A stretch of DNA of 64,000 nt from Planctomycetota bacterium (GTDB lineage: Bacteria; Planctomycetota; UBA1135; UBA2386): contig DASUFY010000243.1 of NCBI GenBank assembly GCA_036274315.1, forward strand, positions 1,329 to 65,328, given 5' to 3'. The notes beneath the pieces were generated by a model. It searched no databases, was not told the DNA's origin, and saw nothing but the letters and a program-made list of their open reading frames with translations. Of the stretch, positions 42,401-61,780 are shown piece after piece. The stretch's first letter is position 1; the number at the start of each line of letters is the position of its first letter. The position numbers were made by a program, and so were the translations under genes.

Positions 42401-42984
42401 GCCGCGGCGCCGACGTAGCCCTTGCGCCACCACGACGCGCGCCCGCGCGTGAACAGCACCTTGCGGCCGTCGGGCGACAGCGTCGCCGACCCGAAGCCGA
42501 CGTCGAGCAGCAGCCGCTTCGGCTGCCTGCCGGCCGCGTCGAGGCGATAGAGCCGGCGCGACTCGCCGCCGTGGAAGTGCTCGTCGCCGTCCATCGCGAC
42601 GACGAGGCCGGCGCCGTCGGCGGTGTACTCGATGAGGCTCTTGCCCTCGGAGTCGAACGTGACCTGCCGCGGCGCATCCGCCGGCAGCGCACCGTCCGGC
42701 AGCGTCACGACGAAGATCTGGTTGCCGCCGGCGCGGTTGCTCGTGAACGCGAGGTGTTTGCCGTCGGGGCTCCAGACGGGGTTGTCGTCTTCGCCGGGAT
42801 GCGTCGTCGCGCGCACGGCGTGGCCGCCGGCCGACGGTGCGACCCAGACGTCGCCGCGCCACGCGAACGCGACCCGCGCTCCGTCGGGGGAGACGCGCGG
42901 TGCACGCGGCAGCAGGATCTCGCGGTCCTGGGCGAGCGCGGGAGCGACGGTGCAGAGAGCGAGCAGCAGGGCGTGGGTTCGCAT
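39475..42984 (-). CDS. Tricorn-protease-like peptidase (beta-propellers, PDZ, S41-type peptidase core)
   Basis: Signal peptide MRTHALLLALCTVAPALAQ. Repeated SPDG..vAF units, a PDZ-like segment, and a C-terminal S41-like core (IDIRWNGGG...CNEYSFSNAE). A low-complexity Gly/Ala/Glu/Pro insert lies at about 41141-41310. Confidence 0.9.
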   Translation of the reverse strand: MRTHALLLALCTVAPALAQDREILLPRAPRVSPDGARVAFAWRGDVWVAPSAGGHAVRATTHPGEDDNPVWSPDGKHLAFTSNRAGGNQIFVVTLPDGALPADAPRQVTFDSEGKSLIEYTADGAGLVVAMDGDEHFHGGESRRLYRLDAAGRQPKRLLLDVGFGSATLSPDGRKVLFTRGRASWWRKGYVGAAAEQIWLADLAQDPPALTRLSHDRPEFQNVSEMAPMWAPGGDAYYFVSDPDGTFDVYQRALDGGAARRITHVGEADGSDDGVAFPSLSADGKTLLVRRRFTLQNVELASAQAKEVRLLASGDQLATFEERRTESRANAVAFTNDGKQMAFMAGEDVYVMDRVLREPVRVTHTPSRETDLVFSADGKTLWFVSDAGGEMDVWRATCPREDGIWWLGKSFELAQVTDDRAVEGDLALSPKGDQLAYSRDGDLFVMNIDGTGAHKVLSTWSGPEFDWSPDGKWITWATQDDDYNSDVWIAPLDGSRAPFNLSRHPGRDSTPRWSPDGTRIAFVGQREDNERDVFYVNLTKDVEEKTGRDRKLEEALEAMKKKPGRGGAGAAGEPGRGGRRGARAEPAPAGEPAVAAGEKGEGEAAAEPEKKADKAPVVVTVDFDGLLERRHRISVPDSAESGLLWSPDGKKLAFSATVDNEPGFYTVEFPEVGKPKRLARQGLSSARWLEPGAEIVGLVSGAPAAGADPAVPPGLPPGFPPRRLRGFAGFGGGSGSPAAMNARGDIERFDFSARQVRDWARLRELAFDQGWRAMRDRFYDEAMNNRDWNQVRGKYRTVAAECLGREEFSDLMNMMLGELNASHMGHSGGSEPMPQVANGQAWNPVTYQLGLRFEHAPGAAAPGLRVRSVVRGGPCAQARSRVEPGETVMAVDGTALDAGVDIDTLLTMDELRDVELTVRDAAGAERKVSVRPIASLRALLYDEWVENTRAAVEKASGGKLGYLHIRSMDMRSLQQMEEDLYAAGAGKDGLIVDIRWNGGGSTADHVLTILTQPVHAITRSRGSGDGYPVDRKVYATWSKPVVLMCNEYSFSNAEILSHAIKQLGRGRLVGMRTGGGVISTGSQSLVDGSTVRMPTRGWYLVTTGADMELNGCMPDIALWNLPGGGDQQLAAAISALAEDVAAERARGRPEPVPAAAKRREQAKAGGGAR

Positions 42985-43211
42985 GGTCGGGGCTCTTCGG
43001 GAGGTTCGAAGGAACGCGCAGGATAGGCGGGCCCTCGCCAGCGCGACACCGGTCGGCGCGCCCGCGGGTGCACGACCGGGGTCATTCGCCCGCATCGCGC
43101 GTGCCTCTCGATCGAGCCCGGGGACCGCGCGACCGCGCGCGGCCCGTTCGAGTTATCCTCGTTCTCCGCCCCCGATCGCCAGCCCACCGCTCTCCAGGAC
43201 ATCTCCCCGAC

Positions 43212-44060: not shown

Positions 44061-45035
44061 GTGACCGCGATGCAAGCTCTGGCGGCCTCGATCCGCGCCG
44101 GCGACCGCCCAGCGCTCGCGCGCGGCATCACGCTGGTCGAGAGCCGGCGGGCGAACGACACGGCCGCCGCCGAGGAACTGCTGCAAGAACTGCTGCCGCA
44201 CACGGGCGGATCGGTGCGCATCGGCATCACGGGCGCACCCGGCGTCGGCAAGAGCACGTTCATCGAAGCACTGGGCCTGCGGCTGTGCACCGCCGGGCAC
44301 CGCGTCGCCGTGCTCGCCGTCGACCCGAGTTCGACGGTGTCGGGCGGCAGCATCCTCGGCGACAAGACGCGCATGAACGAGCTGAGCCGGCAGCCGAACG
44401 CGTTCATCCGGCCGTCGCCGGGCGGCGGCACGCTCGGCGGCGTCGCGGCGCGCACGCGCGAGGCCATGCTGCTCTGCGAGGCGGCCGGGCACGACACCGT
44501 GCTCGTCGAGACCATCGGCACCGGGCAATCCGAGGTCGCCGTGCACGGCATGGTCGACTTCTTCCTGCTCCTGCTGTCGCCGGCCGCCGGCGACGAGCTG
44601 CAGGGCATCAAACGCGGCGTCATGGAACTCGCCGACGGCGTACTCGTGCACAAGGCCGACGGCGACCTCGCCGCGGCGGCCGATCGCGCGGCGCAGCAGT
44701 GCCTGCTCGCGATGCGCGTGCTGCACGCGGGTGACGGGGAACCGCCACCCGTGCTGCTCGGCTCGTCGGTGACGGGCCGCGGCCTCGACGAGCTGTGGCA
44801 GGCGATCGACCGCTGGGTCGCCGCGCGGCGCGGCAGCGGCGCGTTCGCGGCGCGGCGCGCGGATCAGGCCGGCGACTGGCTCGACGAGACCGTGCGCGAG
44901 CAGCTGCTCGCCGAGTTCCTCGGTGAACCTGCGGTCGCCCGGGCCATGGCCGAAGCCCGCGAACGGGTCGCGCGCGGCGAACTGCTGCCCGGGGCGGCGG
45001 CGCGGCGACTACTGGCCCTGCGCCATCGCCCATGA
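44061..45035 (+). CDS. meaB: MeaB/ArgK-type G3E GTPase (methylmalonyl-CoA mutase accessory protein)
   Basis: P-loop GITGAPGVGKSTF, DPSSTVSGGSILGDKTRM, LVETIGTGQSE, VHKADGD. Confidence 0.9.
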   Translation: MTAMQALAASIRAGDRPALARGITLVESRRANDTAAAEELLQELLPHTGGSVRIGITGAPGVGKSTFIEALGLRLCTAGHRVAVLAVDPSSTVSGGSILGDKTRMNELSRQPNAFIRPSPGGGTLGGVAARTREAMLLCEAAGHDTVLVETIGTGQSEVAVHGMVDFFLLLLSPAAGDELQGIKRGVMELADGVLVHKADGDLAAAADRAAQQCLLAMRVLHAGDGEPPPVLLGSSVTGRGLDELWQAIDRWVAARRGSGAFAARRADQAGDWLDETVREQLLAEFLGEPAVARAMAEARERVARGELLPGAAARRLLALRHRP

Positions 45036-45595
45036 ACGCGGCCGCCATCCGTCTCGCCGAGGCCGAGGACTTCGCCGCGATCGCCGCGATCACCAACCAC
45101 TACATCAAGACGACGGCGATCCACTTCAACTACGTGCAGGTCACGGCCGAGGAGCTGCGCTCGCTGTGGCGCGAACACCTCGACGTCTACCCGTGGCTCG
45201 TGCGCGAGGTCGGCGGCACCGTCGCCGCCTACGCGAAGGCCGGCGTGTATCGCGCCCGCCGCGCCTACCACTGGACCACCGAGACCGGCATCTACGTCGC
45301 CGCCGAACACTGCGGGCGCGGCATCGGCCGGCCGCTCTACGAACGCCTGCTCGCCGTGCTGCGCGCGCAGGGCTTCCATTCGGTGATCGGCGGCATCGCG
45401 TTGCCCAACGACGCCTCGGTGCGCCTGCACGAGCGGCTCGGCTTCGTGCACTGCGGCACGATGCCGCGCGTGGGCCGCAAGTTCGACCGCTGGCACGACG
45501 TCGGCTTCTGGCAGCTCGCGCTGCAACCCGACGACCACAACCCCACCGAGCTCGTGCCGCCGGCACTCGCGTTCGCCGCGACGGGTCGGGGCTGA
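45032..45595 (+). CDS. GNAT N-acetyltransferase (phosphinothricin acetyltransferase-like)
   Basis: ATGA overlap with meaB. Motifs IRLAEAEDFAAIAAITNHYI and GRGIGRPLYERLLAVLRAQGFHSVIGGIALPNDASVRLHERLGF. Confidence 0.85.
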   Translation: MNAAAIRLAEAEDFAAIAAITNHYIKTTAIHFNYVQVTAEELRSLWREHLDVYPWLVREVGGTVAAYAKAGVYRARRAYHWTTETGIYVAAEHCGRGIGRPLYERLLAVLRAQGFHSVIGGIALPNDASVRLHERLGFVHCGTMPRVGRKFDRWHDVGFWQLALQPDDHNPTELVPPALAFAATGRG

Positions 45596-45605
45596 GCGCG
45601 GCGGC

Positions 45606-46868
45606 TCAGTGGCCCGGCCGGACCCGCTGCCGCACGTCCGCCACGAGCGGCTCCCACTCGGGCAACAGCGACCAGCGTTCGAGCTGGGCCAGGTCCTTCT
45701 CGGCGTTGTCGCGATCGCCGCGGTCGAGCAGGAACTCGAGGTTGCGCAGCTTGCCGCGCAGCCACTGTTCGCCGTCGATGAGCATCTGCTCGCGCTCGCG
45801 GCGCACGGTCCCGGTCTCGCCATGGGCCTGGAGGAACGCATCGAGCCGCTGCATGGCGGCTTTGTAGTCGCGCCAGACGAAGCGCAGCCGCGACCGCGCG
45901 GCGAAGATCACGTCCTCGGCGCTCTCGGGCTGGTCCATCGCCGCGAGCCCGACGAAGCGCGACCGCTGGCTCTCGATGGCCGCGAGCAGCGGCTTGCCGT
46001 CCGAGTTCCGCGTGCACAGCGCGCGGTAGCGTTCGAGCCAGTGGTCGCAGAGCCGCACGAACTCGCGCGCGGCCGGGCGGGTCACGTCGGTCTGCAGGTA
46101 GGTGCCGACGAACGACTGCAGCAGGTCGTGTTCCTGGCGCGCCTGCAGCACCATCGGCAGCTCGTCGCGTTCGAGCAGCATGCGGCGGATCTCCGCCTCG
46201 AGCGCGAGCGCCTCCTCGCGCGTCTTGCCCGTCGCCTCGGGCAGCGCGAAGGCCAGCGTGTCGAGCGCGCGCTGGGGCTGCTGGTTGCCGAGCTGCTCGC
46301 GCGCGAGGTCGACGTAGTGCTGCGGCGAACTGGGCCACGTCGAATCGGCGAACGAGCGCAGCACGAGAACGGCGACGATCACGATGACGCAGAAGATCGT
46401 CGACGCCGGCACCCAGGTCGGCACGCCGCGGCGCCGGGCCGGCCGCACGCGTTCGGCGCGCGCGCTCCCGGCCTCGCGATTGCGTGCGGGCACCTGCGTC
46501 CTGGCGCGCGAGCGCGGCGCGGCTGGGGCGGCGGCCGGCTTGCCGGACCGGGCCGGCTGCGGCACGAGCGGCGCCTTCTTCGGCGCGCACCAGCGCAGCC
46601 GCAGGCGGCCGACCTCGATCGTGTCGTCGGGCTCGAGGTCCTTGCAGAAGAGGGATTCGCCGTTGACGGTGACCGTGCCGCCGGGCCGGACCGGTTCGAC
46701 GCGCACGCGATCCCCGGCGCGCACGAAGCGCAGATGGTGCGCATCGAGGCCGGCATCGGCCACGCACACGTCCGCGTCGCGAGCGCTGCCAAGCAGGAGC
46801 CGGTCGCCGTGCACCGGCACGATGCGGGTCCCCCCATTGGCGTCTGTGATCTCGATCTGTTCCGACAC
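45606..46868 (-). CDS. FHA-domain protein with a single TM segment and a helical extracytoplasmic region
   Basis: GTG start with a GGAG SD. The FHA domain begins at residue 1 (IVPVHGDRLLLGSARDADVCV...VTVNGESL...IEVGRLRLRW). TM segment WVPASTIFCVIVIVAVLVL. Confidence 0.8.
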   Translation of the reverse strand: MSEQIEITDANGGTRIVPVHGDRLLLGSARDADVCVADAGLDAHHLRFVRAGDRVRVEPVRPGGTVTVNGESLFCKDLEPDDTIEVGRLRLRWCAPKKAPLVPQPARSGKPAAAPAAPRSRARTQVPARNREAGSARAERVRPARRRGVPTWVPASTIFCVIVIVAVLVLRSFADSTWPSSPQHYVDLAREQLGNQQPQRALDTLAFALPEATGKTREEALALEAEIRRMLLERDELPMVLQARQEHDLLQSFVGTYLQTDVTRPAAREFVRLCDHWLERYRALCTRNSDGKPLLAAIESQRSRFVGLAAMDQPESAEDVIFAARSRLRFVWRDYKAAMQRLDAFLQAHGETGTVRREREQMLIDGEQWLRGKLRNLEFLLDRGDRDNAEKDLAQLERWSLLPEWEPLVADVRQRVRPGH

Positions 46869-46901
46869 TTGCTCCAGGCCGTTGCGGGCGGGCGAAGCGT
46901 A

Positions 46902-46926
46902 GCGGCGCGGCGCGCGATCGCCTAGC
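46902..46926. repeat. 25-nt exact repeat, copy 1 (GCGGCGCGGCGCGCGATCGCCTAGC)
   Basis: Identical to 51922-51946. It lies 34-58 nt upstream of the FHA gene start on the minus strand. Confidence 0.85.
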
Positions 46927-47089
46927 CCGGTCGGTTCGTGGGGTTCGTGGTCGACGCCGACGCCTTCGTGTCTGTCAAGGGCCGCGGGTGCGTCCCGGTC
47001 AAGAGTGACAACCTCTTGGGTCGCACGGCGTCGCGGACGGCACGGGGAACCCGCCTGCGATCAGGCGCCGTGCCGCAGGGTGACACGCG

Positions 47090-48450
47090 TCACCGCAGCC
47101 ACCCGATCGATGCCCGCATCGAGTTGCTGACCAAGATCCCCGCGGCGTTGGCGCCAGGCGCGAGCACGAGTGCCTGCTGGTAGAACGGCGTGCCGACCAC
47201 CGCGGGATCGGCCGGGATGGGCTGTTCGAACGTGACGCGGGTGTGGGTGCCGACGCCGAGCTGCAACAACTCGGGAGCAACCCGCAGGTCGCACGACGGC
47301 ATACCGAGCATCGACAGATCGAGCGGCAGCGGCGTCGCGCCGAAGGACTGGTCGCTGAGCCCGGTGATCAGCACGGCAACCGACAGCGGCGCGAGCGAGA
47401 CGGTGACGCCCAACGTGCCGCCGAGCCAGGCGCGGGTCCAGGACTCGGTCAAGCCGAGCACGGGCGCGTTCGCGACCGTGCAGCCAGCACCGTGTGGCGC
47501 GTACATCGCTGGATAGAGGTCGGTCAGGTAGGCGACGCTGCTCGTGGCGCTCTGGTACGAGTAGAAGCGGTTGCGCACGGGGTCGTGGCAGCCGGCGTAG
47601 ACGACGGGATTGAGTCCGTTGAGCACGTAGTTCATCGGCAACCACGCGGCGCCTTCGCGCATGCGCAGGCTCGGCGGGCTGAGACCCTCGGAGTAACGAA
47701 TCATCTTGCCCCGATGCGCGTCGAACCACATGAAGGTGTTGCCGAGCGGGCTGCCAATCGGGCCACTTGGAGGGTACTCGACCCAACCGTCGGACTCGTT
47801 CCAATCCCAAGTCAGCGCCTCCACGGCGATGATATTCCCCGACGAACTCGACGACTCCGTTCGTCCGAACAGGACGAGCTTCTTCTGTGCCGCATCGTAC
47901 CCGAACGCGTGGTACCGATAGGCGCGATGCACCATTGGGCTGATCGGTGGGCCACCGGTCGTCGATACTGGAGACCAGTTTGCTCCATCCCACTCATGCA
48001 GTTCGGCTCCGCCTGCTCCAGCAACGAAGACGACCACTCGCTTCCTGCCGCGATGGTACGTGAGATGGTAACCGAAGTAGGGTGGGTAGACGTACGGCGG
48101 AACCGCCCACGTGAAGAACGGGACGGCGCCGGCATTCGTCCAATTGACACCGTCCCATTCCCACACGCTTTGATAGTAGTCGCTGATGGCCACCGTCACG
48201 CCGCGCCGCTCGTCGAACGCGAATTGCCACCCTGCATTGGGTGGCATGTTGGCGCTTGGCACCTGTTGCCACGACGATCCGTCGAACTCCCATGTCGCGT
48301 TGACGTTGTACCCGATGAGACGGTCTCTATGGGAATCGTAGGCGGCAGCATCACACAGGGGCGCCGGCGTCGTCATCCATATCGTCTGACCGACCGCTCG
48401 ATCCACGCCTGCCAGCAGTACCGCGATCCCAACCCACAGCGTCGGAACTT

Positions 48451-48454
<4 letters not shown>
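47090..48454 (-). CDS. Secreted Kelch-like beta-propeller protein with the shared C-terminal module
   Basis: The GTG start overlaps the S8 protease stop (GTGA). Signal-like VKVPTLWVGIAVLLAGV. W-x-(F/W)DG-x-x-W repeats (WEFDGSSWQQV, WEWDGVNWTNA, HEWDGANWSPV). C-terminal module HGAGC...PLPLDLSMLGMPSCDL...PIPADPAVVGTPFYQQAL. Confidence 0.8.
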
Positions 48455-51780
<3,326 letters not shown>

Positions 51781-51869
51781 GATCTCCACCTTCTCCACGG
51801 CCCGCGATGGGTGCGCGGCCCCAAACCGCACAGCATACCCCGGAACGCGGTGACCGGCTACCCGCGGCC

Positions 51870-51904
51870 TTGAAGCTCTTGAAGCTCTGAAGCTCCAAAG
51901 CTCC
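51870..51904. repeat. Short tandem repeat (T)GAAGCTC x4 (periods 9, 8, 8) in the S8 protease upstream region
   Basis: gaagctc at 51872, 51881 and 51889; aaagctc at 51897. The repeat sits 90-125 nt upstream of the protease ATG. Confidence 0.7.
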
Positions 51905-51921
51905 AGTGCCCCGGTGGATTC

Positions 51922-51946
51922 GCGGCGCGGCGCGCGATCGCCTAGC
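51922..51946. repeat. 25-nt exact repeat, copy 2, overlapping the TAG stop of the FHA-CAP gene
   Basis: Identical to 46902-46926. Confidence 0.85.
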
Positions 51947-54854
51947 GGTGGCCCGCCTCGCCGGCGGCCGCCCACGCCGGATCGTCGCGGTGCACGAGGC
52001 CCGAACCGAAGTTCTGCACCCAGTAGCGCCCGTCGGCGCCGATGCCGACCTCGTGGTGGTTCGGATCGAGCAGGTTGCGGTGGTGGCCCGACGACTGGCA
52101 CCACGCGTTGTGCGAGGCCAGGGCCGAGTCGGAGAGTGCGATGTTCTCGCTGACGCCGAACTTGTAGCCGGCGAGCCGCATGCGGTCGTACGGCGTCGTG
52201 CGACCCGGCGTCGGCGACATGTGCGCGAAGTAGCCGAGCTTGGACATCTCCTCGGCGTGACCCTGGGCCGCCTCGCACAGCGAGGCGACGATCGCCAGCG
52301 GCCGGTGCCGGAACATCGCGCGGTAGTCGTTCGTGATGCGCAGTTGCTCGCGCACCGCGGCGCCGAGCTTCTTGCCGACGATCGTGTTGTAGGCCTCGAT
52401 GCGCCGCCACTCCTCGAGTTCCGTGCGCTCGGCGACCGTGGCGCAGTAGTCGCGGATGCCGACGCTGTCGCCGGCCGGCAGCGCGCGCGCCCAGTCGACG
52501 CGCGCGAGGCGGTCCTGGTCGAGTTCGCCGAGGTCGCCGAGCACCTTGGCCACCCACTGCAGCCGGTCGAGGTCGGCGCGCAGGCTGGCGGGCACACGCA
52601 CGACGACGCGGTCGTCGCGCCACAGCACGCGCAGCGCCGCCACGCGGCGGTCGACCTCGGCCTGCACCTCGTTGTACTCGGCGAAGCGCTGGCCCGAGAC
52701 GGCCGGCGGCTTGTAGGGGTAGAAGTACTTGACCTCGTCGTAGATCAGGTCGCGCGCGTTCTTGCGCGCCGCGTCGAGCATGACCCGCTGTTGGGCCAGG
52801 CGGTCGACCTGCTTCTTGAGGTTGCCCGACTCGAGCTTCTCCAGCTGGCGGCCGAACTCCTTCTGGAAGGCCGCCACCATGACGTCCAACGCCTCGGGCC
52901 CCGAGGAGAGCACGTCGGTCACGAAGGCGTCGCGCGCGTTCGGGTTCTTGTCGCGCAGCACCGTGTCGAGGCGCGCACCGAGCTTCTTGGCCTGCTTCTG
53001 CACCTCGATCGAACGCGCCGACACGAAGCCGTCCTTGCCGAGCGTGTAGCCGAGCGCGTCGATCGGCTCGCCGCGCCCGTGCGCGATCACCTCGTCGACG
53101 AGCGGCTTCTGCGTCGCGTCGGCGCGCAGCGCCTTGGCGAGCAGGGCCTCGGCGCGTTCGCTCTCGCCCTGCTTGTAGAGCAGCGTCGCCGCGCCGAGCA
53201 GGGATCTGCCGGTCGGCTGCACCTGCTCCGTGAGCGCCTGCAGACCCGGCGCGCCGATGTCGTGCCAGCAGAGGCGCAGATCGCCGTCGACCGACGAACC
53301 GAGCAGCGCCGGGCCCTCGACGGCCCGCAGCTGCACCCCCTGTCCGGCCGCCGTCGTCGTGTTCAGCACGCGGCCTGTGCGCAACGTCTCCGCGATGCAC
53401 TCGTGCCAGGCCGCGAGCAGGCCCGCTTCGTCGGCGCGCACCTCGAGACGGCGCGCGAAGTCCGCGTCCCGATCGCGCACGAGGTCGGCCGCCGCACGCA
53501 GCAGGCCGGCGGCCTCGCCGAACGCGGCCCGCTCCTCGGCGGCCCGGACCTGGTCCATCTGGGCGCGCAGGCCGGCCAGCGTGGCCGTGCGCACCGCGGG
53601 ATCGACGCCGTCGGGCCGGGCCACGGGACTCGCGGGTTGCGCCGCGGTCGCCGCGGCGGCGGCCAGCGCTTCGCACTTCGCCAGCTGGGCCGGCAACTCG
53701 GCGAACTCCGGCGTCGCGGGGAAGCGATGGCGCAGGCCCGCCAGGAGTCGCGCCGCTGCCTCGGGCTTGCCGGCCTCGACCAAACGCTGCGCCTGCTCGA
53801 GCGCGGTCGCCATCTTGCGCTTCGCCTCGGCGCGCACGTCGTCGATGCGACGCTGCACGACGACGAGCCCGGCTTCGCCGGTCGCGTTCGCGAGCTCGCC
53901 CTGCAGCAGCGACAGCGCCGGCGTGAACAGGTCCTGGTCGACGAGGCGTTGGGCCTCGACGAACACCTGCTCGGCCGACGAACGCGCCGGCGGCTCGGCG
54001 GCGGTCGGCGATGCGGTGGTCGGCGATCCGGCGGTGGTCGGCGGCGGCGCCGCCGCGGCGACGGCGTCGGGCGGCGTCGAGGTCGCGGGCCTCTGGCTCA
54101 GCGTCTCGCGGAGCGAGGAGCGCACGCGTCGCGCCGCCACGCGTTCGGCGGGGGTGCCTTCCGCTTCGAGCCGCTGCAGCTCGCGGTTCCACTCGGCATA
54201 CGAGCGCGACAGTGCCGGATCCAACACCTGCGCGGTCAGCTCGGTCGTCGCGGTCTCGACCGCGAGCACGGCCTGCCGTTCGGCGTCGAGCCGGTCGAGG
54301 CGATCGTCGGTCGCATCGCTCCAGTCGCGATGCAGTCGTTCGATCGCGGCGGTGGCCTGCTCGAGCTGGCCGGCCTGGCGCAGCCTCGCGACGCCGGCGA
54401 GCTCGCCGCTCACGCGCCCCGTGTCGTCACCGGAGAACACGAACGCGAGCCCGACGGCGACGATGATCCCGGCCGCGGTGATGGCCCACCAGCGCGCTCG
54501 CCCCTGCGTGCGGGTCCGGCTCGCGCGCGTGCGCGGCAGGCCGTCGGCGAGCACGTCCTCGGGACCCGCGGCGCGGTGCACCGCGCGGCCGACGACGAGC
54601 ACCGCCTTGCCGATCTCGATGCGATCGCCGAGCGCGAGCACGGTCGCGCGCACGGCCTGCCCGTTGACGAGCACCGGGCCGATGGCGACCAACCGCACGC
54701 CGTGGTCGATCGGTTCGATGCGCGCGTGCACGGGTTGCACGCCGGCTTCGCCGAGTTGCACGTCCGCTTCGCCCGCCCGGCCGAGCACCACCGGAGCACC
54801 ATCGAGGGAATGCAGGAAGGTCTGGCCGCGGTCGAGAATCTGCAGCGTGAACAT
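51942..54854 (-). CDS. FHA domain - TM - long helical region - C-terminal CAP/SCP (PR-1-like) domain protein
   Basis: FHA domain begins at residue 1 (APVVLGRAGEADVQL...VLVNGQAV...IEIGKAVLVV). TM segment WWAITAAGIIVAVGLAFVF. C-terminal CAP signature YFAHMSPTPGRTTPYDRM...HNAWCQSSGHHRNLLDPNHHEVGIG. Confidence 0.85.
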   Translation of the reverse strand: MFTLQILDRGQTFLHSLDGAPVVLGRAGEADVQLGEAGVQPVHARIEPIDHGVRLVAIGPVLVNGQAVRATVLALGDRIEIGKAVLVVGRAVHRAAGPEDVLADGLPRTRASRTRTQGRARWWAITAAGIIVAVGLAFVFSGDDTGRVSGELAGVARLRQAGQLEQATAAIERLHRDWSDATDDRLDRLDAERQAVLAVETATTELTAQVLDPALSRSYAEWNRELQRLEAEGTPAERVAARRVRSSLRETLSQRPATSTPPDAVAAAAPPPTTAGSPTTASPTAAEPPARSSAEQVFVEAQRLVDQDLFTPALSLLQGELANATGEAGLVVVQRRIDDVRAEAKRKMATALEQAQRLVEAGKPEAAARLLAGLRHRFPATPEFAELPAQLAKCEALAAAAATAAQPASPVARPDGVDPAVRTATLAGLRAQMDQVRAAEERAAFGEAAGLLRAAADLVRDRDADFARRLEVRADEAGLLAAWHECIAETLRTGRVLNTTTAAGQGVQLRAVEGPALLGSSVDGDLRLCWHDIGAPGLQALTEQVQPTGRSLLGAATLLYKQGESERAEALLAKALRADATQKPLVDEVIAHGRGEPIDALGYTLGKDGFVSARSIEVQKQAKKLGARLDTVLRDKNPNARDAFVTDVLSSGPEALDVMVAAFQKEFGRQLEKLESGNLKKQVDRLAQQRVMLDAARKNARDLIYDEVKYFYPYKPPAVSGQRFAEYNEVQAEVDRRVAALRVLWRDDRVVVRVPASLRADLDRLQWVAKVLGDLGELDQDRLARVDWARALPAGDSVGIRDYCATVAERTELEEWRRIEAYNTIVGKKLGAAVREQLRITNDYRAMFRHRPLAIVASLCEAAQGHAEEMSKLGYFAHMSPTPGRTTPYDRMRLAGYKFGVSENIALSDSALASHNAWCQSSGHHRNLLDPNHHEVGIGADGRYWVQNFGSGLVHRDDPAWAAAGEAGHR

Positions 54855-54915
54855 CGGGCGTGGTCAGGCAGCCCGGCGAGAGCAGGCTGAGCGATCGGGC
54901 GGGGCAACAGGGATC

Positions 54916-55860
54916 CTAACCGCCGCCGCCCGGCTGCCGCAATGCATCGAGCCGCCGCCACAGGGATCCGACGCGATCCAGCGTGTGTTCGCGGTCGGGC
55001 ACCAGGTCCGAGGCCCAGGAAGTGCGGGCCTCGAGTGCCACGGGCTCGCTGCGCAGAAGGTGCTGCAGACGCGCGGACTCGGCCCCGGTCTGGTTGGCGA
55101 CGACGAGCCATCCGCCCGGTCGCAGCGCCGCCACGGCCCGGCTGACGAGGCGCCGCGGCCGCAGCTTCGACAGCGGCAGACCCCAGCGCAGCAGCGCATG
55201 GGCCGACAGGAACGGGAACAGCATCACGACGACGTCCTGGGCCGGCAGGCAGAGCCGCGTGAAGTCGGCGACTTCGTAGCTGACCACGCTGCGGCCGGCC
55301 GCCGACCGCGCGGCGAGCCGCGCGTGGGCGCGCGCGTGGTCGGTGCGCGAGTGCCCGTCGCGGTAGACGCCGAAGCCGTCGACCTCGAACCCGCGCAGCA
55401 CGACCTCGCGGCCCGCCGCGGCGCCGCCGGCGAGCCAGCGATGCAGCGCCGTGGCGTAGTGGAAGTCGCCGCTGCCGACGTCGACCGCGCGGACCACGCC
55501 ATCGGGCCCGGCCGGTGCGCTGTCCCCCGGCGCGAGGCGCGCGAGGCACTCGAGCAGAGCGAGGTTCGCGGCATGCACGCTGCGCGTCGAACACGCGCGC
55601 AGGTCGCCGAGCCCATGCTCGCGCTCGAGCCGGGCCGCCGCCGCCTGCAGCGCACGTCGCGACGCGGCGGGCGCGAAGTCGAAGAGGCCGCGCTTGTCCT
55701 CGTGCGGCAGGCGCGCTTCGCCGCGGCTCCAGCCGACGCGCGAGCGCAGCGCGAACGCGAGTTCGTTGCCGGGCACGCGCAGCAGGGTCACGCAATGGCG
55801 CAGCAGCGAAGCCATGCCCAGGACATCGGCTTGCCGTCGTGCTCGGCGTGAGGCGAGCAA
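54916..55860 (-). CDS. Class I SAM-dependent methyltransferase-like protein
   Basis: Motif I-like AVDVGSGDF and post-motif LRPGGWLVVAN. An alternative start exists at 55815. Confidence 0.65.
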   Translation of the reverse strand: MLASRRARRQADVLGMASLLRHCVTLLRVPGNELAFALRSRVGWSRGEARLPHEDKRGLFDFAPAASRRALQAAAARLEREHGLGDLRACSTRSVHAANLALLECLARLAPGDSAPAGPDGVVRAVDVGSGDFHYATALHRWLAGGAAAGREVVLRGFEVDGFGVYRDGHSRTDHARAHARLAARSAAGRSVVSYEVADFTRLCLPAQDVVVMLFPFLSAHALLRWGLPLSKLRPRRLVSRAVAALRPGGWLVVANQTGAESARLQHLLRSEPVALEARTSWASDLVPDREHTLDRVGSLWRRLDALRQPGGGG

Positions 55861-55874
55861 CGTTCGACCGCGTG

Positions 55875-56330
55875 ATGGCCGGAGCCCCGACGAACGCTAG
55901 ACTGCCGCGCGTGCCCTCGTCGCGGTGGTCTCTGGGCCTGTTGGCCTTGGTCTCGGTCCACGTGTGCTGGGGGCTCGCGCGCGTGCCCACGAAGGTGCTC
56001 GCGCGGCGCCTCACCTACATCGAAGCCTTCCGCCGCGACGGCGACGCGGCGTTCCTGTTCGGCGACGCCAGGATCCAGGGTGCCGACGCGGTGCTCTGGT
56101 TGCGCGAGCACACGGCGAACGACAGCGTGCTGCTCTGGCGCGGCACCGAGACGGGCCCGATCGAGTTCGCCGCGGCGCTGCTGTGGCCTCGCCTGCTGGT
56201 CGCCGCAGGTGCGGTCGACGGCGCGACGAGCTTCGCCGGCCGCAGCTTCGCGACGGGCACGATCGCGGGCCGGACCGGCCGCATCGTGCTCGTGGCCGAG
56301 CGCGCGGCGCTGCACGTCGAGGTGCCATGA
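55875..56330 (+). CDS. Hypothetical membrane-anchored protein
   Basis: N-terminal TM segment WSLGLLALVSVHVCWGL. ATGA overlap with the downstream membrane protein. Confidence 0.55.
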   Translation: MAGAPTNARLPRVPSSRWSLGLLALVSVHVCWGLARVPTKVLARRLTYIEAFRRDGDAAFLFGDARIQGADAVLWLREHTANDSVLLWRGTETGPIEFAAALLWPRLLVAAGAVDGATSFAGRSFATGTIAGRTGRIVLVAERAALHVEVP

Positions 56331-57730
56331 GCCGCGCCGGGTCGGCCGAACGTGTGCTCGTCGGCTGCCTCGGCGCCTACGCGGCGATCGGCGGCCTCGG
56401 GTCGTGTTGGCTGCTCGCGCACCGCACCGTGCCCGACTGGATCCTGCCCGTCGCCTGCCTGCTCGGTGCACTGCTCGCGGCCACGCATCGCACCGGCCCG
56501 GCGCCGGACCCGGCGCCCGCGCGCCCGTTCCTGGTCTGGCTCGCGCTCGCGACCGTCGTGACCCTGACCGCCGTGCTCGCCTACGGCTCGCTGGCCACGC
56601 CGTCGCGCGAATGGGACGGAGCGGTCGCCTGGGATCTCAAGACCGCGGTGCTGCGCGCCGACCCGTCGCTCGAGCAGCCGTTCTTCCGCGAACCCGCGGT
56701 CTATTGCCACAGCCGCGACTACCCGCTGCTGCAGCCGCTCGCGATCGCGCTCGTCGAACGCGCCGGGCTGCCGGGCCGGCTGCTGTTCCCGCTCGCCCAT
56801 CTGCTGCTCGTGGCCGCGGTGCTGGCCGCCGCGCGCCGCGCCGGGGCCGGCGGCAACCGGGCGCTCCTGTTCGCGACCGCGTGTGCCGTGACGCCGATGC
56901 TGGTCAATCCGACCGGCGGCGGCTTCGACTCGGGCTATGGCGACGCCGTGCTCGCCGCGGTGCTCGCTGCCGCCGCGCTCGGCGTCGCGGGGCGCATTCC
57001 GCTGCTGGTCGCGCTCGCGGTCTTCGTCGCGGCGCTGCAGAAACCCGAAGGGCTGCCCTACGCCGCGCTGCTGGTCGCCGCGTGTGCGCTCGCCGGCGAC
57101 TCGAAGCTGCTGCGTCCGGCGACCGGGGCACTGTGCGTCGCGGGCGCGCTCGCGCTGTCGATGCAGCACGACCTGCTCGACCTGGGCCGGACCTCGACGT
57201 GGTGGCGCTGCGCCGGCGCATCGGCCGGGCTCGGCGCGGCCGTGCTCGGTCTCGACGCCTGGCTCACGCGCCGCCGCGCCGCGCTGCCCACGCGCCTCGT
57301 CGTGCTGCTGCTCGCGCTGCCGCTCGCCGTCGTGTGCCTGGCCTGGCTCACGGGCCAACACGGCAGCCTCGGCGTGCACGTCGCCGACGGAGCCCGCCCG
57401 CTGCATCGCATCGGTCGCCTGCCGGCGATCCTGCTCGCCATCGCCGATTGGGGCTGGCTGCAGGGCCGCTTCGGCCTGACCTTCGTGCTGCCGCTCGTGA
57501 TCGCGGTGGCACAACGACGCCAGCGCGCCGCCGGCACGGCGCCGGCGCTGCGCAACTGGCTCCTGCTCGCCGTGCCGCTGTGGTGCGCGGCATTCCTGCT
57601 CTCGCCGATCGACGACCTCGAACACCACCTGCGATCGACGCTGCCGCGCCTCCTGCTCCACTGGTGCGGCGTCGCGTGGTGCTGGAGCGCCACGCAGCCC
57701 CTCACCCGCGACGGCCCCCAGGCAACCTGA
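56327..57730 (+). CDS. Polytopic membrane protein, GT-C-fold glycosyltransferase-like (tentative)
   Basis: At least 10 predicted TM helices. The first loop carries acidic/aromatic residues (SREWDGAVAWD), reminiscent of ArnT/PMT-type enzymes. The functional assignment is weak. Confidence 0.6.
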   Translation: MSRAGSAERVLVGCLGAYAAIGGLGSCWLLAHRTVPDWILPVACLLGALLAATHRTGPAPDPAPARPFLVWLALATVVTLTAVLAYGSLATPSREWDGAVAWDLKTAVLRADPSLEQPFFREPAVYCHSRDYPLLQPLAIALVERAGLPGRLLFPLAHLLLVAAVLAAARRAGAGGNRALLFATACAVTPMLVNPTGGGFDSGYGDAVLAAVLAAAALGVAGRIPLLVALAVFVAALQKPEGLPYAALLVAACALAGDSKLLRPATGALCVAGALALSMQHDLLDLGRTSTWWRCAGASAGLGAAVLGLDAWLTRRRAALPTRLVVLLLALPLAVVCLAWLTGQHGSLGVHVADGARPLHRIGRLPAILLAIADWGWLQGRFGLTFVLPLVIAVAQRRQRAAGTAPALRNWLLLAVPLWCAAFLLSPIDDLEHHLRSTLPRLLLHWCGVAWCWSATQPLTRDGPQAT

Positions 57731-57790: not shown

Positions 57791-57902
57791 TCAGAACCGG
57801 TCTCTCCCGCGCCAAGGGCGCCGTCAGGCGCCCGCAGGAGCGGTAGGAGGTCCTGAGCGAGTTCGACCAGCGGTGCTTTGCGCCGCTGGTCGACCTCGTT
57901 CA
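57791..57902 (-). repeat. Structured 3'-flank element, copy B
   Basis: Starts at the TGA of 57900..59666 on the minus strand. Hairpin acgaggtcgaccagcggcgc-aaa-gcaccgctggtcgaactcgc pairs 17/20. The tail is nearly identical to copy A. Confidence 0.8.
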
Positions 57903-59666
57903 GAAGCCGACCGTGATCTCGGTGCCGTTCGACGTGACGAGGTTCAGCGGCGTCGCGAGCGAGAAGGCCACCGCCTGCACGCGCAACTGGGTGCCGGCGA
58001 ACATCGCGTTGTTCGGGATCGGCAGCAGCTGGTTGCCGCTCCACGTCATCGACGAGACCGGGAACGACAGCGAACCGATGTTCGCGTTCGTGTAGCCGAA
58101 GCAGCCCGGCATGCCGAGGAACGTCAGGTCGAGCCCGGGCAGGATCTTGGTGTCGCCGACGAACAGGAACGCGAGCGGCACGATCGGCGGCACGTTCGTC
58201 GCAGTGGTCGAGAACGACGAGTTGCCGATCGTCGGCAGGCCGTTGGCCGTCAGCGCCAGGCCCAGGAGCTGCGCATCGGCGATGTTGATCGCACCGAACG
58301 CCGAGGACAGGTCCGTGGCGCCCGGATCACCCGAGGGCCCGGCCACCGAGTAGCCGACGACGATGTTGTCGACGCTGGCCGGACCGGACATCGCCCCGAT
58401 CACGAGCGTCAGGTCGCCCGTGGCGAGGTTGAACTGGAACTGCATCGTGTTGGGCGTGGTCGTCGTGTAGCTGTAGACGCCGTTCCAGGTCACGTAGGCG
58501 AAGCCCGAGATCTCCTCGAACGTGATCATGCCGCTGCCCGCCTGGGTCTGGTCGTAGTCGTGCCAGCAGGCGAACACCGTCGACGCGTCGGCCAGCAGCT
58601 CCGCGGCCGACGGTGTGTAGTCGATCGTCGCGCTGCCCGGCCCGCCGACCTCGACCTGACCCTTCGTCGTCACGTTGAGCGTCGTCGTGGTGCCACCCGC
58701 GACCGGCATCGCCGAGGACAGCGTGAACTGCTGCTGGCCGTCGAGCAGCCCCATCGCGACCGGCTGGGCCGCGGCCGTCGGCGGCACGAACGTGCCCGGC
58801 AGGCTGTTGAGCACGATGTAGCCGTTGCCCGTGCGCAGCATGGTGATGACCGTGTTCGACAGATCGAACGCCGCCATCGCCGAGAACTCGTAGAACGAGT
58901 CGCTCTGGGTGATGCACCCGGTGCCGTAGTTCGACGTGGATGCACAGTTGACGCTGGGGGCGGAGAAGAACGTCCAACCGGGATTGGTCGGGATCATGTC
59001 GAGGCCCGCGGAAGCCATGTCGAACGTGGCGGGCGTCAGCCACTGCTCGAACAGCGTGTTGTCGGTCGTGGCACCACCCGCCGACAGATCGCTCGCCGCC
59101 GGCAGCGTCACGCCACCGCCCACCGAGACACCCGTGATCCCGACCTGCCATGTCGGCTGGCTCGCGATCGAGTTGTTGGTCGTGCCGGGGCCGTAGGTGC
59201 AGTGGATCGCGCCGGACGGAGAGAGCGTCATCTGCATGTCGAACAGCGGCCCACCCGCGAGACCATTGTTGTAGATCTGCGCGTTCTTCCACGTGATCGT
59301 GCACTGCGTGGTGGTGCTGCTCAGGAAGCACGCTCCGCTGTTCCCGGAGAGGCACTGGATGTCGGACCACAGGGCGCAGATGCGCGGCGGCCCCGATGCG
59401 AGTTCGGCGGCGGTGGCGGTGAAGTCCGCGCCGCCCGGCGCCGGGATGCCCGCATTCGACAGGTAGACATAGCCCTTGTCGCAGACGTGGATGTTCGTGA
59501 ACGTCTGGCCCGCGAGCGGGAACGCGAAGCCGATCGGCTGGATCGGGTAGACGACGTCGCCGCCGGCACCCAACGAGACTCCGGGAGTGCCGATCACGCA
59601 GTTTTGTGCGAACGCCGGGAGGGCCAGCACACCGACCGCAAGACCGCCGAGGAACTTGTGCATCAT
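57900..59666 (-). CDS. Secreted protein with two NIDO-like regions and the shared C-terminal module
   Basis: Signal peptide MMHKFLGGLAVGVLALPAFAQ. PIGFAFPLAGQTFTNIHVCDKGYVYL...ICALWSDI, then a second similar unit ending ACWHDYD. C-terminal LDLTFLGMPGCFGY...LPIPNNAMFAGTQLRVQAV. Confidence 0.8.
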   Translation of the reverse strand: MMHKFLGGLAVGVLALPAFAQNCVIGTPGVSLGAGGDVVYPIQPIGFAFPLAGQTFTNIHVCDKGYVYLSNAGIPAPGGADFTATAAELASGPPRICALWSDIQCLSGNSGACFLSSTTTQCTITWKNAQIYNNGLAGGPLFDMQMTLSPSGAIHCTYGPGTTNNSIASQPTWQVGITGVSVGGGVTLPAASDLSAGGATTDNTLFEQWLTPATFDMASAGLDMIPTNPGWTFFSAPSVNCASTSNYGTGCITQSDSFYEFSAMAAFDLSNTVITMLRTGNGYIVLNSLPGTFVPPTAAAQPVAMGLLDGQQQFTLSSAMPVAGGTTTTLNVTTKGQVEVGGPGSATIDYTPSAAELLADASTVFACWHDYDQTQAGSGMITFEEISGFAYVTWNGVYSYTTTTPNTMQFQFNLATGDLTLVIGAMSGPASVDNIVVGYSVAGPSGDPGATDLSSAFGAINIADAQLLGLALTANGLPTIGNSSFSTTATNVPPIVPLAFLFVGDTKILPGLDLTFLGMPGCFGYTNANIGSLSFPVSSMTWSGNQLLPIPNNAMFAGTQLRVQAVAFSLATPLNLVTSNGTEITVGF

Positions 59667-59963: not shown

Positions 59964-61778
59964 TCAGCGCGGCGTCTGCGGGAACTTCAGGTACGGCAGG
60001 CGCACGCCCAGGAACGAGAAGTTGTCGATGCGCAGTTCGGGCGGCGGCTCGAAGCCGCGGCCGCCCTCGAACGCGATGAGGTCGTTCTGCTCGACGCCAT
60101 CGCCCGACACGCCGAGCGCTCCGACGAGCTGGCCAGCCTTGTAGAGCGGCACGGTGCCTGGGAAGAACGTCAGGCCGTTCTGGTAGCCGGGGTCCGGCGG
60201 CTCGCGGCCCCAGCGGTCGGCCTGGGCCGGCAGCTGGTTCAGTTGCGCGAGGGCGAACAGGGGGCCGGGCGTGCCGAAGTTCTCGTCGATGCCGGGCGGA
60301 TAGAACGGCTGCGACAGGAAGCCGAGCGCGCGCGTCGTGATCGCGACGCCGCGGTTCTGGCCGGTCGGATCGACCGGGAAGCCGGGCCACTGGTCGGCCG
60401 GGGCCGGACCGCCGGGCCGACTGTAGTAGACGACGCTGCGCGCCTTGGCCGGCACGACGTCGATGGCATCGCACAGCGTGTCCTCCATGCGGAAGTGCGC
60501 GAGGATCAGCCCGCGCGTGTCGACGACGGTGGCGATCACCTTGGCGCCGCTGCCGAGCGGCAGGCGGACCTGGCCGCGCGTGATGTTGGCGCTCGCGACG
60601 ACCTGGTTGATGATCGTCGTGACGTCGGTCTGCGTCAGCAGCTGGCCGCCGAAGCCGCTGACGCCGGGGCGCGGCCCGATCAGGTAGCCGAAGGGATCGG
60701 GGCGGCCGTCGGTCGGCACGACGAGCCAGTTCGTGTCCTGCGGCGGATTCGGCGGCGGTGCCGCGGGCGGCGGCAACGGCGCCGTGCCCGGACCGAAGCC
60801 GGTGGGGCGCGTCGTCTGCTTGACGTACGGCAGCAGGATGCCCGCGATCGTGATCGCACCCTCGGTCGGGATGCTCAGGAAGAAGTTCTCGTCGCCGGGC
60901 GCGCCGCTGCCCGAAGCGCCCGTGATCGCAGCGAACTCCGCGGCCAGCTCGTCGGGCACGGCGGCCGGATTGGCCGCGAGGCTCCGCCGCACGAAGACGC
61001 CGATGCCGCCGACGAGGCGCGGCACGCCGGTGCTGTTGGCCTTGTAGAGCGGCACCGCGCCGGGCAGCGAGACGATGCCGGGGCTCGGGAACGTACCGCC
61101 GTTGAAGCCGCCGACGCCGTTGAACGCCGCACCGTTGATGTTGCGCGACGGGAAGAAGATCTTGTTCGGATCGAAGTCCGGGGCGACGTTCGTGTTGAAC
61201 GCGGTCGGCGGGACCGTCAGGTTCGTCGCGATGTCGGCGCCGCGGTTCGTCGCCTGGATCTGCCAGAGCGGCCCCTGCGGCGTGCCCGCGATGCCGGTCG
61301 TCGTGCGGTTGGGCGCGAGCACCGTGTCCGGGAACGGGCCGGCGCCGCTGCTCTGGGGCAGCTGCGAGGCGATGAAGGGCAGACCGAAGGTCGGCGGGAA
61401 GTGGAACGTCGACAGCGTCTCGACCGTGCGCGACGACAGCGGCGCCTGGCTGTTGCTGAAGAAGCCCGTCGTACGGCCGAGGTTGACGGCGATGTTGTCC
61501 TCGTCGGCGATCGTGATGCCCGGCACGCTGTACGCGCCGAGGATGTCGCCCGTGCGCGAGACCACGGCCACGTGCAGGTCCGGGCTGTCGATCGAGGCGA
61601 CCGCGCGGCTGATGATGAGCTGCACGTCGGCCGCCGTCAGCGGCAGGACGTCGCCGAACACCGGCAGGTTCGGCGCCGAAGTGCCGCGCACGGTGCCGCT
61701 GCACGAGGAGAACGCGACGCCCGCAGCCGCGAGACTGGCGAGCACGCAGAACGTCAGACGACTGGGTGTGACGGTCAT
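59964..61778 (-). CDS. Lipoprotein with two expanded GlcG/DUF336 (HbpS-like) halves
   Basis: Lipobox GVAFSSC. Half 1: LTAADVQLIISRAVA...HVAVVSRTGDILGAY...GAVPLYK...LVGGIGV. Half 2: LTQTDVTTIINQVVA...VIATVVDTRGLILAHFRM...GTVPLYKAGQLVGALGVSGDGVEQNDLIAFEG. Confidence 0.75.
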   Translation of the reverse strand: MTVTPSRLTFCVLASLAAAGVAFSSCSGTVRGTSAPNLPVFGDVLPLTAADVQLIISRAVASIDSPDLHVAVVSRTGDILGAYSVPGITIADEDNIAVNLGRTTGFFSNSQAPLSSRTVETLSTFHFPPTFGLPFIASQLPQSSGAGPFPDTVLAPNRTTTGIAGTPQGPLWQIQATNRGADIATNLTVPPTAFNTNVAPDFDPNKIFFPSRNINGAAFNGVGGFNGGTFPSPGIVSLPGAVPLYKANSTGVPRLVGGIGVFVRRSLAANPAAVPDELAAEFAAITGASGSGAPGDENFFLSIPTEGAITIAGILLPYVKQTTRPTGFGPGTAPLPPPAAPPPNPPQDTNWLVVPTDGRPDPFGYLIGPRPGVSGFGGQLLTQTDVTTIINQVVASANITRGQVRLPLGSGAKVIATVVDTRGLILAHFRMEDTLCDAIDVVPAKARSVVYYSRPGGPAPADQWPGFPVDPTGQNRGVAITTRALGFLSQPFYPPGIDENFGTPGPLFALAQLNQLPAQADRWGREPPDPGYQNGLTFFPGTVPLYKAGQLVGALGVSGDGVEQNDLIAFEGGRGFEPPPELRIDNFSFLGVRLPYLKFPQTPR

Positions 61779-61780
61779 GG

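Follow-up and report, generated by a model that had tools for sequence, protein, structure and literature searches.

In a 64,000-nucleotide stretch of Planctomycetota bacterium DNA (GenBank assembly GCA_036274315.1, contig DASUFY010000243.1, positions 1,329 to 65,328; hereafter the window), two genes for proteins with an N-terminal FHA domain bracket the genes of an S8 protease and its partner. This arrangement raises the question of whether the four genes form one functional unit. The original prediction held that they may, with a membrane Ser/Thr kinase in the window passing phospho-signals through the FHA domains to protease and CAP activities outside the cytoplasm. We have found instead that the conserved unit is a Planctomycetota-specific pair of genes encoding an FHA-transmembrane-helical-CAP protein (FHA-CAP) followed by an FHA-transmembrane-helical protein (FHA1), and that the genes of the protease and its partner form an unrelated cassette of two genes inserted between them. 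Our best overall reading, to which we give slightly better than even confidence, is that this pair uses its FHA domains for phospho-independent docking and forms a periplasmic scaffold with a CAP domain, to which the inserted proteases are unrelated.

Coordinates follow the numbering of the window, which has a GC content of ~70%, and genes lie on the minus strand unless marked otherwise. The gene map was based on GC content by codon position and inspection of open reading frames (ORFs). The comparison set comprised 78 loci with FHA-CAP relatives, 75 from species-representative genomes (all Planctomycetota metagenome-assembled genomes by name or context) and three from metagenomes. Synteny was assessed by tblastn of the window's neighboring proteins against these 78 related loci. 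Individual loci are cited by number (e.g., L004) where needed. The four genes in question, with lengths in amino acids (aa) and the basis of each assignment, are as follows.

51942-54854, minus strand: FHA-CAP, FHA-transmembrane-helical-CAP protein, 970 aa (Pfam, AlphaFold, Foldseek, 25-sequence alignment)
48451-51780, minus strand: S8 subtilase, 1109 aa (Pfam, catalytic motifs)
47090-48454, minus strand: partner of the S8 protease, 454 aa, secreted (S8/partner junction)
45606-46868, minus strand: FHA1, FHA-transmembrane-helical protein, 420 aa (Pfam, AlphaFold, Foldseek, hhalign)

A conserved pair of membrane FHA proteins

FHA-CAP begins with an FHA domain (Pfam FHA, 27.7 bits against a cut-off of 20.7) whose fold occupies aa 22-87 (nucleotides [nt] 54594-54791); the related Pfam model Yop-YscD_cpl scored 31.4 bits, under its cut-off of 33.2. 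Hydropathy analysis identified one hydrophobic segment at aa 122-143, which corresponds to a predicted transmembrane (TM) helix at aa ~120-143 (nt 54426-54497). In the AlphaFold model the periplasmic region that follows, aa 144 to ~830, consists of TPR-like helices interrupted by a small beta insertion (aa 497-528); the model, generated from a homolog alignment, had a predicted local distance difference test score (pLDDT) of 84.6. The C-terminal CAP domain that had been noted from the sequence was confirmed at aa 838-948 (nt 52011-52343) by Pfam (PF00188, 46.3 bits against a cut-off of 21.1) and by Foldseek searches of the PDB, which returned 4ifa (E 2.5e-5), 4h0a and 4d53. Residues H866, E869, E903, N904, H924 and H925 of this domain are invariant in 25 orthologs.

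FHA1 is built on the same plan without the CAP domain. It scored above threshold for both Yop-YscD_cpl (41.1 bits; cut-off 33.2) and Pfam FHA (22.3 bits; cut-off 20.7), and its AlphaFold model (pLDDT 88.6) comprises an FHA fold at aa 4-94, a disordered Arg-rich linker at aa 107-148, a TM helix at aa 152-175 and an all-alpha periplasmic domain at aa 182-416. The FHA domains of both modeled proteins form the eleven-strand beta-sandwich expected of this fold. Foldseek searches against the PDB matched them to GarA, OdhI, FhaA and the Ki67 FHA domain with E values of 1e-4 to 1e-6, and TM-scores to the target were 0.6-0.88 against phosphothreonine-reading FHA folds. A local FHA hidden Markov model (HMM) found exactly three FHA proteins in the window, the number originally reported, and all three pass the Pfam thresholds.

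Both complete proteins carry five Arg/Lys residues within the 15 residues before their single hydrophobic segment and have no N-terminal signal. From these features FHA-CAP and FHA1 are assigned an N-in, single-pass topology in the inner membrane, which puts the FHA domain in the cytoplasm and the helical arm, with the C-terminus, in the periplasm. Hydropathy and the models thus agree with the order of domains first proposed for the two proteins, and with its prediction of cytoplasmic FHA domains.

The two proteins are also related to each other. The FHA1 HMM matches the N-termini of FHA-CAP proteins, and hhalign aligned FHA1 with the first ~400 residues of the FHA-CAP family over 372 columns (probability 98.6%, E 5.5e-16) that cover the FHA domain, the TM helix and the first periplasmic helices. 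By these profile comparisons FHA1 is a shorter paralog of the N-terminal 40% of FHA-CAP.

Among the 66 related loci with enough sequence, 28 carry an FHA1 homolog, identified with the FHA1 HMM, directly 3' of the FHA-CAP gene; in 25 of these 28 the spacer measures 22-147 nt. The pairing persists down to ~35% identity (L076, L050, L061). Proteins of the FHA-TM-helical-CAP type form 79 clusters at 43-66% identity, and a profile search of 1.84 billion cluster representatives returned 631 family representatives at E<=1e-30; every member with a source name belongs to Planctomycetota. The conserved unit is therefore a two-gene pair specific to this phylum, an FHA-TM-helical-CAP gene followed by an FHA-TM-helical gene. 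The remark that FHA-TM-CAP proteins are unfamiliar from characterized systems was justified: the architecture is real and conserved, and in the literature on FHA combined with CAP in bacteria we found no paper describing it. The family is uncharacterized and phylum-restricted, and combines known domains in a new way.

Insertion of the protease cassette between the FHA genes

The S8 protease has a signal peptide, a Pfam Peptidase_S8 domain (48.1 bits; cut-off 21.8) and the Asp, His and Ser motifs FDTGI, HGTAM and GTSEAA at aa 214, 292 and 541. Its stop codon overlaps the GTG start codon of the partner gene as GTGA, preceded by GGAGG, so that the partner spans 47090-48454. The translational coupling originally proposed for the two genes is hence upheld. 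The accompanying description of the partner as Kelch-like is unconfirmed: no Pfam or NCBIfam model matched it at E<=1, Kelch included, and repeated W-x-(F/W)-DG-x-x-W motifs are visible in its sequence.

The borders of the segment that holds these two genes are marked by a direct repeat.

51922-51946: border direct repeat, copy B, overlapping the FHA-CAP stop codon (51942-51944)
46927-51921: inserted segment of 4,995 bp with the S8 gene, the partner gene and their upstream region, GC 0.668
46902-46926: border direct repeat, copy A (GCGGCGCGGCGCGCGATCGCCTAGC), located 34 nt 5' of the start of FHA1

The repeat is perfect over 25 nt and occurs just twice in the window, once at each border of the insert. 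The 25-mer is absent from 83 loci, and in shuffled sequence none would be expected, the longest exact repeats there being 16 nt. FHA-CAP and FHA1 are separated by 5,073 nt in the window; when the insert and one copy of the repeat were removed in silico, a spacer of ~57 nt remained that aligned with the spacer of L004, including the GCTACGCTT motif. In the closest relatives, L004 (63%) and L036 (64%), the two FHA genes are adjacent. GC content at third codon positions (GC3) is 0.80-0.83 in the S8 and partner genes versus 0.91-0.95 in the flanking genes.

The distribution of the cassette points the same way. By tblastn the S8 protease had no match at any of the 78 related loci, and the partner matched there only through a C-terminal segment common to other secreted proteins. 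The S8 family is small, with 17 homologous clusters. Three of its homologs (L079-L081) sit in three unrelated contexts, none near FHA genes, and in each of them a partner homolog with 35-39% identity directly follows the S8 gene. In assembly JAGQRB01 the S8 and partner genes are separated from the FHA-CAP gene, which lies on another contig. The S8 protease and its partner thus make up an unrelated two-gene cassette that was inserted into a ~57-nt spacer between the FHA genes, with 25 nt duplicated at the borders. The proposal that the proteases belong to the FHA module is refuted by the comparative evidence: of the neighborhood for which conservation was to be checked, the FHA-CAP/FHA1 pair is conserved and the protease pair between them is not. 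A false functional link is removed by this result, which illustrates how the neighborhood in a single genome can mislead, and the 25-nt duplication marks the insertion event precisely.

Two other histories of the segment were considered. An ancestral protease pair that was lost elsewhere is rejected, as it does not fit with the adjacent FHA genes of L004 and L036, the atypical composition of the insert and the still perfect repeats. Of the marks of a transposon or insertion sequence, direct repeats are present, but the S8 and partner genes are the only genes in the insert; there is no recombinase, transposase or integrase gene, and its ends carry no inverted repeats. No comparable direct repeats flank the three other S8 cassettes, which leaves a general mobile-element signature unsupported.

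The cassette might also have been co-opted after its insertion, giving a four-gene operon in this genome in which the protease now works together with the periplasmic scaffold or on it. The four genes are co-oriented and their strand shows no terminator-like site; FHA1, at present 5 kilobases (kb) from the conserved promoter element described below, would depend on read-through for its expression. The arrangement is, however, confined to a single genome, with no conservation to support selection; the cassette occurs in unrelated contexts elsewhere; and ~140 nt of upstream sequence, in which tandem repeats are found, came with it, as did an (AC)14 tract. We regard co-option as very unlikely.

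The (AC)14 tract (51749-51777) begins right after the start codon of the S8 gene, where it is translated as THTHTHTHT. When located at the 5' end of a gene, such repeats are characteristic of on/off switching by strand slippage. About 100 nt upstream of the S8 start, at 51869-51903, a unit of 8-9 nt (GAGCTTCA) is repeated three to four times. The S8 protease, its partner and a third secreted protein of the window (57900-59666) have a similar C-terminal segment of ~110 aa with an LGMPxC-like motif (48451-48800, 47090-47450 and 57900-58250, respectively). Pairwise similarity of the three C-termini is weak (E 0.013-0.075), and that of the partner resembles, in addition, the ends of other secreted proteins in L001, L047, L060 and L077. 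The shared segment may be a sorting or anchoring domain.

State of the FHA domains

Phosphopeptides are contacted by FHA domains through the motifs GR, SxxH and NG, and the FHA folds of MxiG and YscD do not bind phosphothreonine (PMC3162421). Aligned to GarA, the FHA-CAP protein of the window keeps the Arg (R26) and the His (H43), carries Gln where the Ser would be and is three residues shorter in the Asn-bearing loop. The motifs had been described as altered, which was right in substance. The change extends through the family: at the Arg position 20 of 25 FHA-CAP orthologs have Ser and one, the window's own protein, has Arg, and at the SxxH motif His is present in 24 of 25 and Ser in none. 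FHA1 homologs have GS for GR and (A/D)xxH for SxxH, and many of them have no precomputed Pfam FHA match. The combination of GR, SxxH and NG that marks phosphothreonine-binding FHA domains is thus not conserved in either the FHA-CAP or the FHA1 family, and phospho-dependent reading by the two membrane FHA proteins of the window's clade is unlikely.

The first 15 residues of FHA-CAP (MFTLQILDRGQTFLH) are nearly invariant in the 25 orthologs, yet the pLDDT is 29 over the first ten. Their greater conservation relative to the canonical phosphopeptide site hints at a different binding surface.

These results bear on the kinase that had been proposed to control the locus.

10468-13110, minus strand: Ser/Thr kinase with Pkinase domain, TM helix and FGE-sulfatase domain (Pfam)

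The TM Ser/Thr kinase was correctly recognized, though its ORF spans 10468-13110 rather than 10468-12870; the TM helix lies at aa ~437-455. In the scheme built around it, the kinase would phosphorylate a cytoplasmic target, the FHA domains would read the phosphothreonine, and the signal would control the periplasmic CAP domain, the S8 protease and the partner as one module. Such a scheme draws on the cytoplasmic location of the FHA folds and the extracytoplasmic location of the CAP domain and protease, on the presence of a TM kinase in the window and on the absence of any predicted terminator between the four same-strand genes. It conflicts with the protease pair being a lineage-specific insertion that is absent from 78 loci and bordered by 25-nt repeats, and with the Arg and Ser contacts being unconserved in both FHA families of the clade. 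The kinase, moreover, is the sole one in the window and lies ~33 kb from the FHA genes. Taken whole, this scheme is for the most part refuted by the comparison of genomes and is the least probable of the explanations we weighed. Kinase control as such is unsupported in the window's clade and, on the evidence of the distant relatives described next, plausible for these.

The wider family and its upstream regions

Among the best 150 family members, 121 were near full length; at their N-termini 84 carry an FHA domain, 26 a lipobox and 11 neither of these. Because many relatives have a lipoprotein signal in place of the FHA-TM part, the latter can be regarded as an exchangeable anchor: the helical-CAP module appears constant in the family and the N-terminal anchor variable. 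The series of anchors, from canonical FHA through degenerate FHA to lipoprotein signal, is a natural experiment on when an envelope protein needs a cytoplasmic connection.

Of 88 FHA-bearing members, 18 retain the canonical Arg, Ser and His, and all 18 are among the most distant matches. Two loci of this canonical branch (L082 and L083) have the gene order FHA-GAF-sigma54 activator, FHA-TM-helical protein and small FHA-TM protein, and in L082 a Pkinase and FGE-sulfatase kinase that shares 34% full-length identity with the window kinase lies 1.5 kb from the cluster. In nearly all loci at <=45% identity, those of lipoprotein-type members included, a short sigma54-type AAA+ gene is found directly upstream of the helical-CAP gene on the same strand. 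Its product has ~300 aa and a GSFTGA loop and no recognizable DNA-binding domain (e.g., L003 8949-9860); it also occurs in L040, L043, L046-L048, L054, L056, L058, L062, L065, L069, L075 and L076. No sigma54 activator was found in the 64-kb window.

The third FHA protein of the window (FHA3) is seen only at its 5' end.

63673->64000, plus strand: FHA3, 5' end, 109 codons (ATG start, Pfam)

FHA3 begins with an ATG at 63673 rather than at 63672 as first reported and scores 33.8 bits for Pfam FHA and 34.9 bits for YscD_cpl. Its N-terminal FHA domain keeps GR and has GREQ in place of SxxH. A homolog of 496 aa in L020, 76% identical over the part seen in the window, consists of an N-terminal FHA domain, a Pro-rich linker and a second FHA domain with canonical GR, SESH and STN; it has no TM helix. 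In 21 loci FHA3 is divergently oriented to the adjoining outer-membrane-like gene. Two FHA domains and the lack of a TM helix in relatives place FHA3 outside the FHA-TM architecture; in relatives it is predicted to be a separate soluble protein. Downstream of the FHA3 homolog in L001 (1-4455, minus strand) and co-oriented with it are the genes of a 368-aa protein, a protein with 4Fe-4S domains that binds cyclic nucleotide monophosphate, and a 733-aa protein in which an N-terminal FHA domain is joined to multiheme cytochrome domains; the window stops short of this region.

A Ser/Thr-phospho relay is the second explanation that these relatives suggest. The FHA-TM pair, a membrane kinase and an FHA-containing sigma54 activator would couple a periplasmic cue, perceived by the helical-CAP part, to transcription, and the window's clade would still rely on it, either via the residues that it has kept or via the canonical second domain of the neighboring FHA3. 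The 18 canonical members, the activator-FHA-TM clusters of L082 and L083 with the nearby kinase of L082, the short AAA+ gene upstream in the more distant loci and the synteny of FHA3, whose second FHA domain is canonical, in 21 loci are all in keeping with it. Several observations are not. The window and the regions upstream in its sub-clade hold no sigma54 activator, and in the sub-clade a possible methyltransferase takes its place; the lipoprotein-anchored relatives keep the activator as a neighbor, yet have no means of transmembrane signaling; the window's clade has lost the residues for phosphothreonine binding; and the element conserved upstream of FHA-CAP is a sigma70-like hexamer. We consider a relay still in use in this clade to be unlikely, although it is to be taken more seriously than the other alternatives. 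Given that distant members keep canonical FHA domains near an activator or kinase, phospho-control may be ancestral to the family; the link to phospho-signaling and sigma54 regulation may thus be an old one that is not visible at the window locus.

The upstream region of FHA-CAP in the window contains the following features.

54913-54918, minus strand: -10-like hexamer TAGGAT, 64 nt 5' of the start of FHA-CAP and overlapping the stop codon of the 299-aa gene
54916-55815, minus strand: 299-aa protein, possible class I S-adenosylmethionine (SAM) methyltransferase (sub-threshold profile matches)

A TANNNT hexamer is present 46-93 nt 5' of the FHA-CAP start in 47 of 49 loci, compared with 7.7 expected from shuffles, and its position is kept also in loci without the 299-aa gene. 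A scan of 45500-56000 for consensus sigma70 promoters called no site, TAGGAT included, so that the case for a promoter element here is made from conservation. We read TANNNT as a probable conserved -10 element that gives the FHA-CAP gene its own promoter. A search for sigma54-type promoter patterns found none in 50 regions upstream of FHA-CAP genes.

The gene heading the same strand had been called a methyltransferase gene. Its position and strand stand, while the label is unconfirmed. The 299-aa protein has no Pfam or NCBIfam match, and a single-sequence search of the PDB gave nothing meaningful. An 11-sequence profile against the PDB gave sub-threshold matches (E 0.04-0.56), all of them to SAM methyltransferases, with alignments centered on vDvGcGd and RpGGwLvv. 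The gene lies upstream of FHA-CAP in 27 of 46 loci and is syntenic only inside the window's sub-clade.

Proposed function and comparison with known systems

For the function of the pair and for every step of the scaffold mechanism we infer the following. The FHA domains would most likely be phospho-independent cytoplasmic docking modules, by analogy with the type III secretion proteins YscD and MxiG. The pair would act as a membrane-anchored periplasmic scaffold or tether. By means of the ~690-residue arm at whose end it sits, the CAP domain would be held in the periplasm, possibly on peptidoglycan as has been reported for the lipoprotein DalA. The short paralog FHA1 would be the partner of FHA-CAP.

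In Rhodobacter, the envelope lipoprotein DalA is bound to peptidoglycan by non-covalent contacts and is associated with proteins of the division machinery (PMC10470522). Its NCBIfam model (NF052539) matches the CAP region of FHA-CAP at E 3e-6. DalA is an envelope lipoprotein, and many relatives of the window protein are also lipoproteins. More generally, FHA-CAP shares the CAP fold and the invariant His and Glu residues with CAP/SCP proteins such as YkwD, the Bacillus anthracis protein 4ifa, Staphylococcus aureus SAV1118, Borrelia BB0689 and DalA; the YkwD family model (TIGR02909) scored 65.4 bits against a cut-off of 171. Known CAP proteins differ in being small and secreted or lipoproteins, and none has an FHA-TM anchor or a helical arm of ~690 residues.

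Several points weigh against the scaffold reading or parts of it. The DalA match, at 27.1 bits, is far under its cut-off of 200, and the DalA paper is silent on a CAP domain (PMC10470522); peptidoglycan binding by the CAP domain is accordingly put forward as a lead only. An FHA1 homolog is not found downstream in 38 of 66 loci, so that the large protein can apparently act alone, and adjacency and paralogy are all that points to a physical complex of FHA-CAP with FHA1. The FHA-CAP protein of the window itself retains R26 and the His, by which some residual phosphopeptide binding is possible. With regard to the insertion, the 25-nt duplication arose without any recombinase gene in the insert, and the insert is co-oriented with the FHA genes on a strand free of terminator-like sites, which makes co-expression of the four genes possible in this genome.

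The nearest architectural analog of the pair is GltG/GltJ of the Myxococcus xanthus Agl-Glt gliding system. GltG and GltJ are a paralogous single-pass pair; each has a cytoplasmic domain and extends far into the periplasm, where it ends in a globular domain, and the authors of the study likened them to TolA (PMC11761067). Both pairs consist of single-pass paralogs with a cytoplasmic interaction domain, which in GltG is an FHA domain. GltG differs in its TonB-C-like end, second FHA domain, disordered periplasmic linkers and AglRQS motor, whereas the window pair has a folded TPR-like solenoid that ends in a CAP domain, and no motor genes nearby. YscD, MxiG and other SctD proteins, which form the inner-membrane ring of type III secretion, resemble the window proteins in their N-terminal cytoplasmic FHA fold, one TM helix and periplasmic domain; their FHA fold has no functional phosphothreonine binding (PMC3162421). 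They differ in their ring-building alpha/beta periplasmic motifs and in belonging to type III secretion clusters; the window proteins are all-alpha, and no type III secretion genes were found in the window neighborhood or the syntenic loci.

The FHA-TM proteins could also be inner-membrane parts of an envelope-spanning machine for secretion, a pilus or gliding, comparable to YscD/SctD or GltG/GltJ. Two of the three FHA domains, those of FHA1 and FHA3, score highest with the Pfam model of the YscD cytoplasmic domain (Yop-YscD_cpl), and there is a weak match to the NCBIfam GltG model, GltG/GltJ being likewise a paralogous single-pass pair (PMC11761067). That match (NF033760) is 16.1 bits against a cut-off of 650, the periplasmic part is all-alpha without ring-building alpha/beta motifs or TonB-C, and the conserved neighborhood contains no secretion, pilus, Tol/Exb or Agl/Glt genes. 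A role in such a machine is highly improbable, more so than co-option of the cassette.

The phosphothreonine-reading proteins GarA/OdhI, FhaA, Rv1747 and the type VI secretion proteins Fha (TagH) and PpkA share the FHA fold; in distant branches of the family the canonical residues are retained and a kinase lies nearby. The window's clade differs from them in lacking a conserved Arg and Ser and in its shorter Asn-bearing loop. The TagH model matches neither FHA-CAP nor FHA1; its one match is to the second of the two FHA domains in an FHA3 relative, and there are no type VI secretion genes among the called neighbors.

A broader possibility is that FHA-CAP, its paralog and, in deeper branches, the adjacent sigma54 activator and kinase belong to an undescribed Planctomycetota envelope system, in which a long periplasmic arm with a peptidoglycan-binding CAP domain would couple the state of the wall or envelope to the cytoplasm through FHA domains, perhaps as part of a growth or division apparatus. 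We consider this quite unlikely. Many Planctomycetota lack FtsZ, the envelope and division machinery of the phylum is poorly understood, and bacterial CAP domains have almost no known function. Peptidoglycan binding, if true, would make the family a starting point for the study of CAP function and of the planctomycetal envelope and division. Apart from such roles, a sizeable uncharacterized family has been delimited in which an FHA fold inside the cell and a CAP domain in the periplasm occur in one protein.

Neighboring genes

The remaining genes around the locus, all taken from the gene map, are as follows.

44061-45035, plus strand: MeaB GTPase
45032-45595, plus strand: GNAT acetyltransferase
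about 56330-57730, plus strand: polytopic membrane protein
57900-59666, minus strand: secreted protein
59964-61778, minus strand: HbpS-like lipoprotein
61781-63508, minus strand: outer-membrane-like protein

In closer relatives, tblastn found the order FHA3, outer-membrane-like protein, HbpS-like lipoprotein, secreted protein, 299-aa protein, FHA-CAP, FHA1, GNAT and MeaB to be kept. A tricorn-type protease with PD40 repeats, Tricorn_C1, PDZ and S41 domains (39475-42987, minus strand) lies 2.6 kb from FHA1, outside the conserved synteny as judged from the 10-kb flanks of the related loci. The outer-membrane-like protein ends in ALITTW and has a weak porin match, and the HbpS-like lipoprotein has two HbpS-like domains of the heme-degrading/GlcG type. 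These two proteins (59964-63508 together) are 75-85% identical across relatives, a far higher conservation than the 45-65% of the FHA genes. In L020 their genes are adjacent on the same strand, with 3 nt between them.

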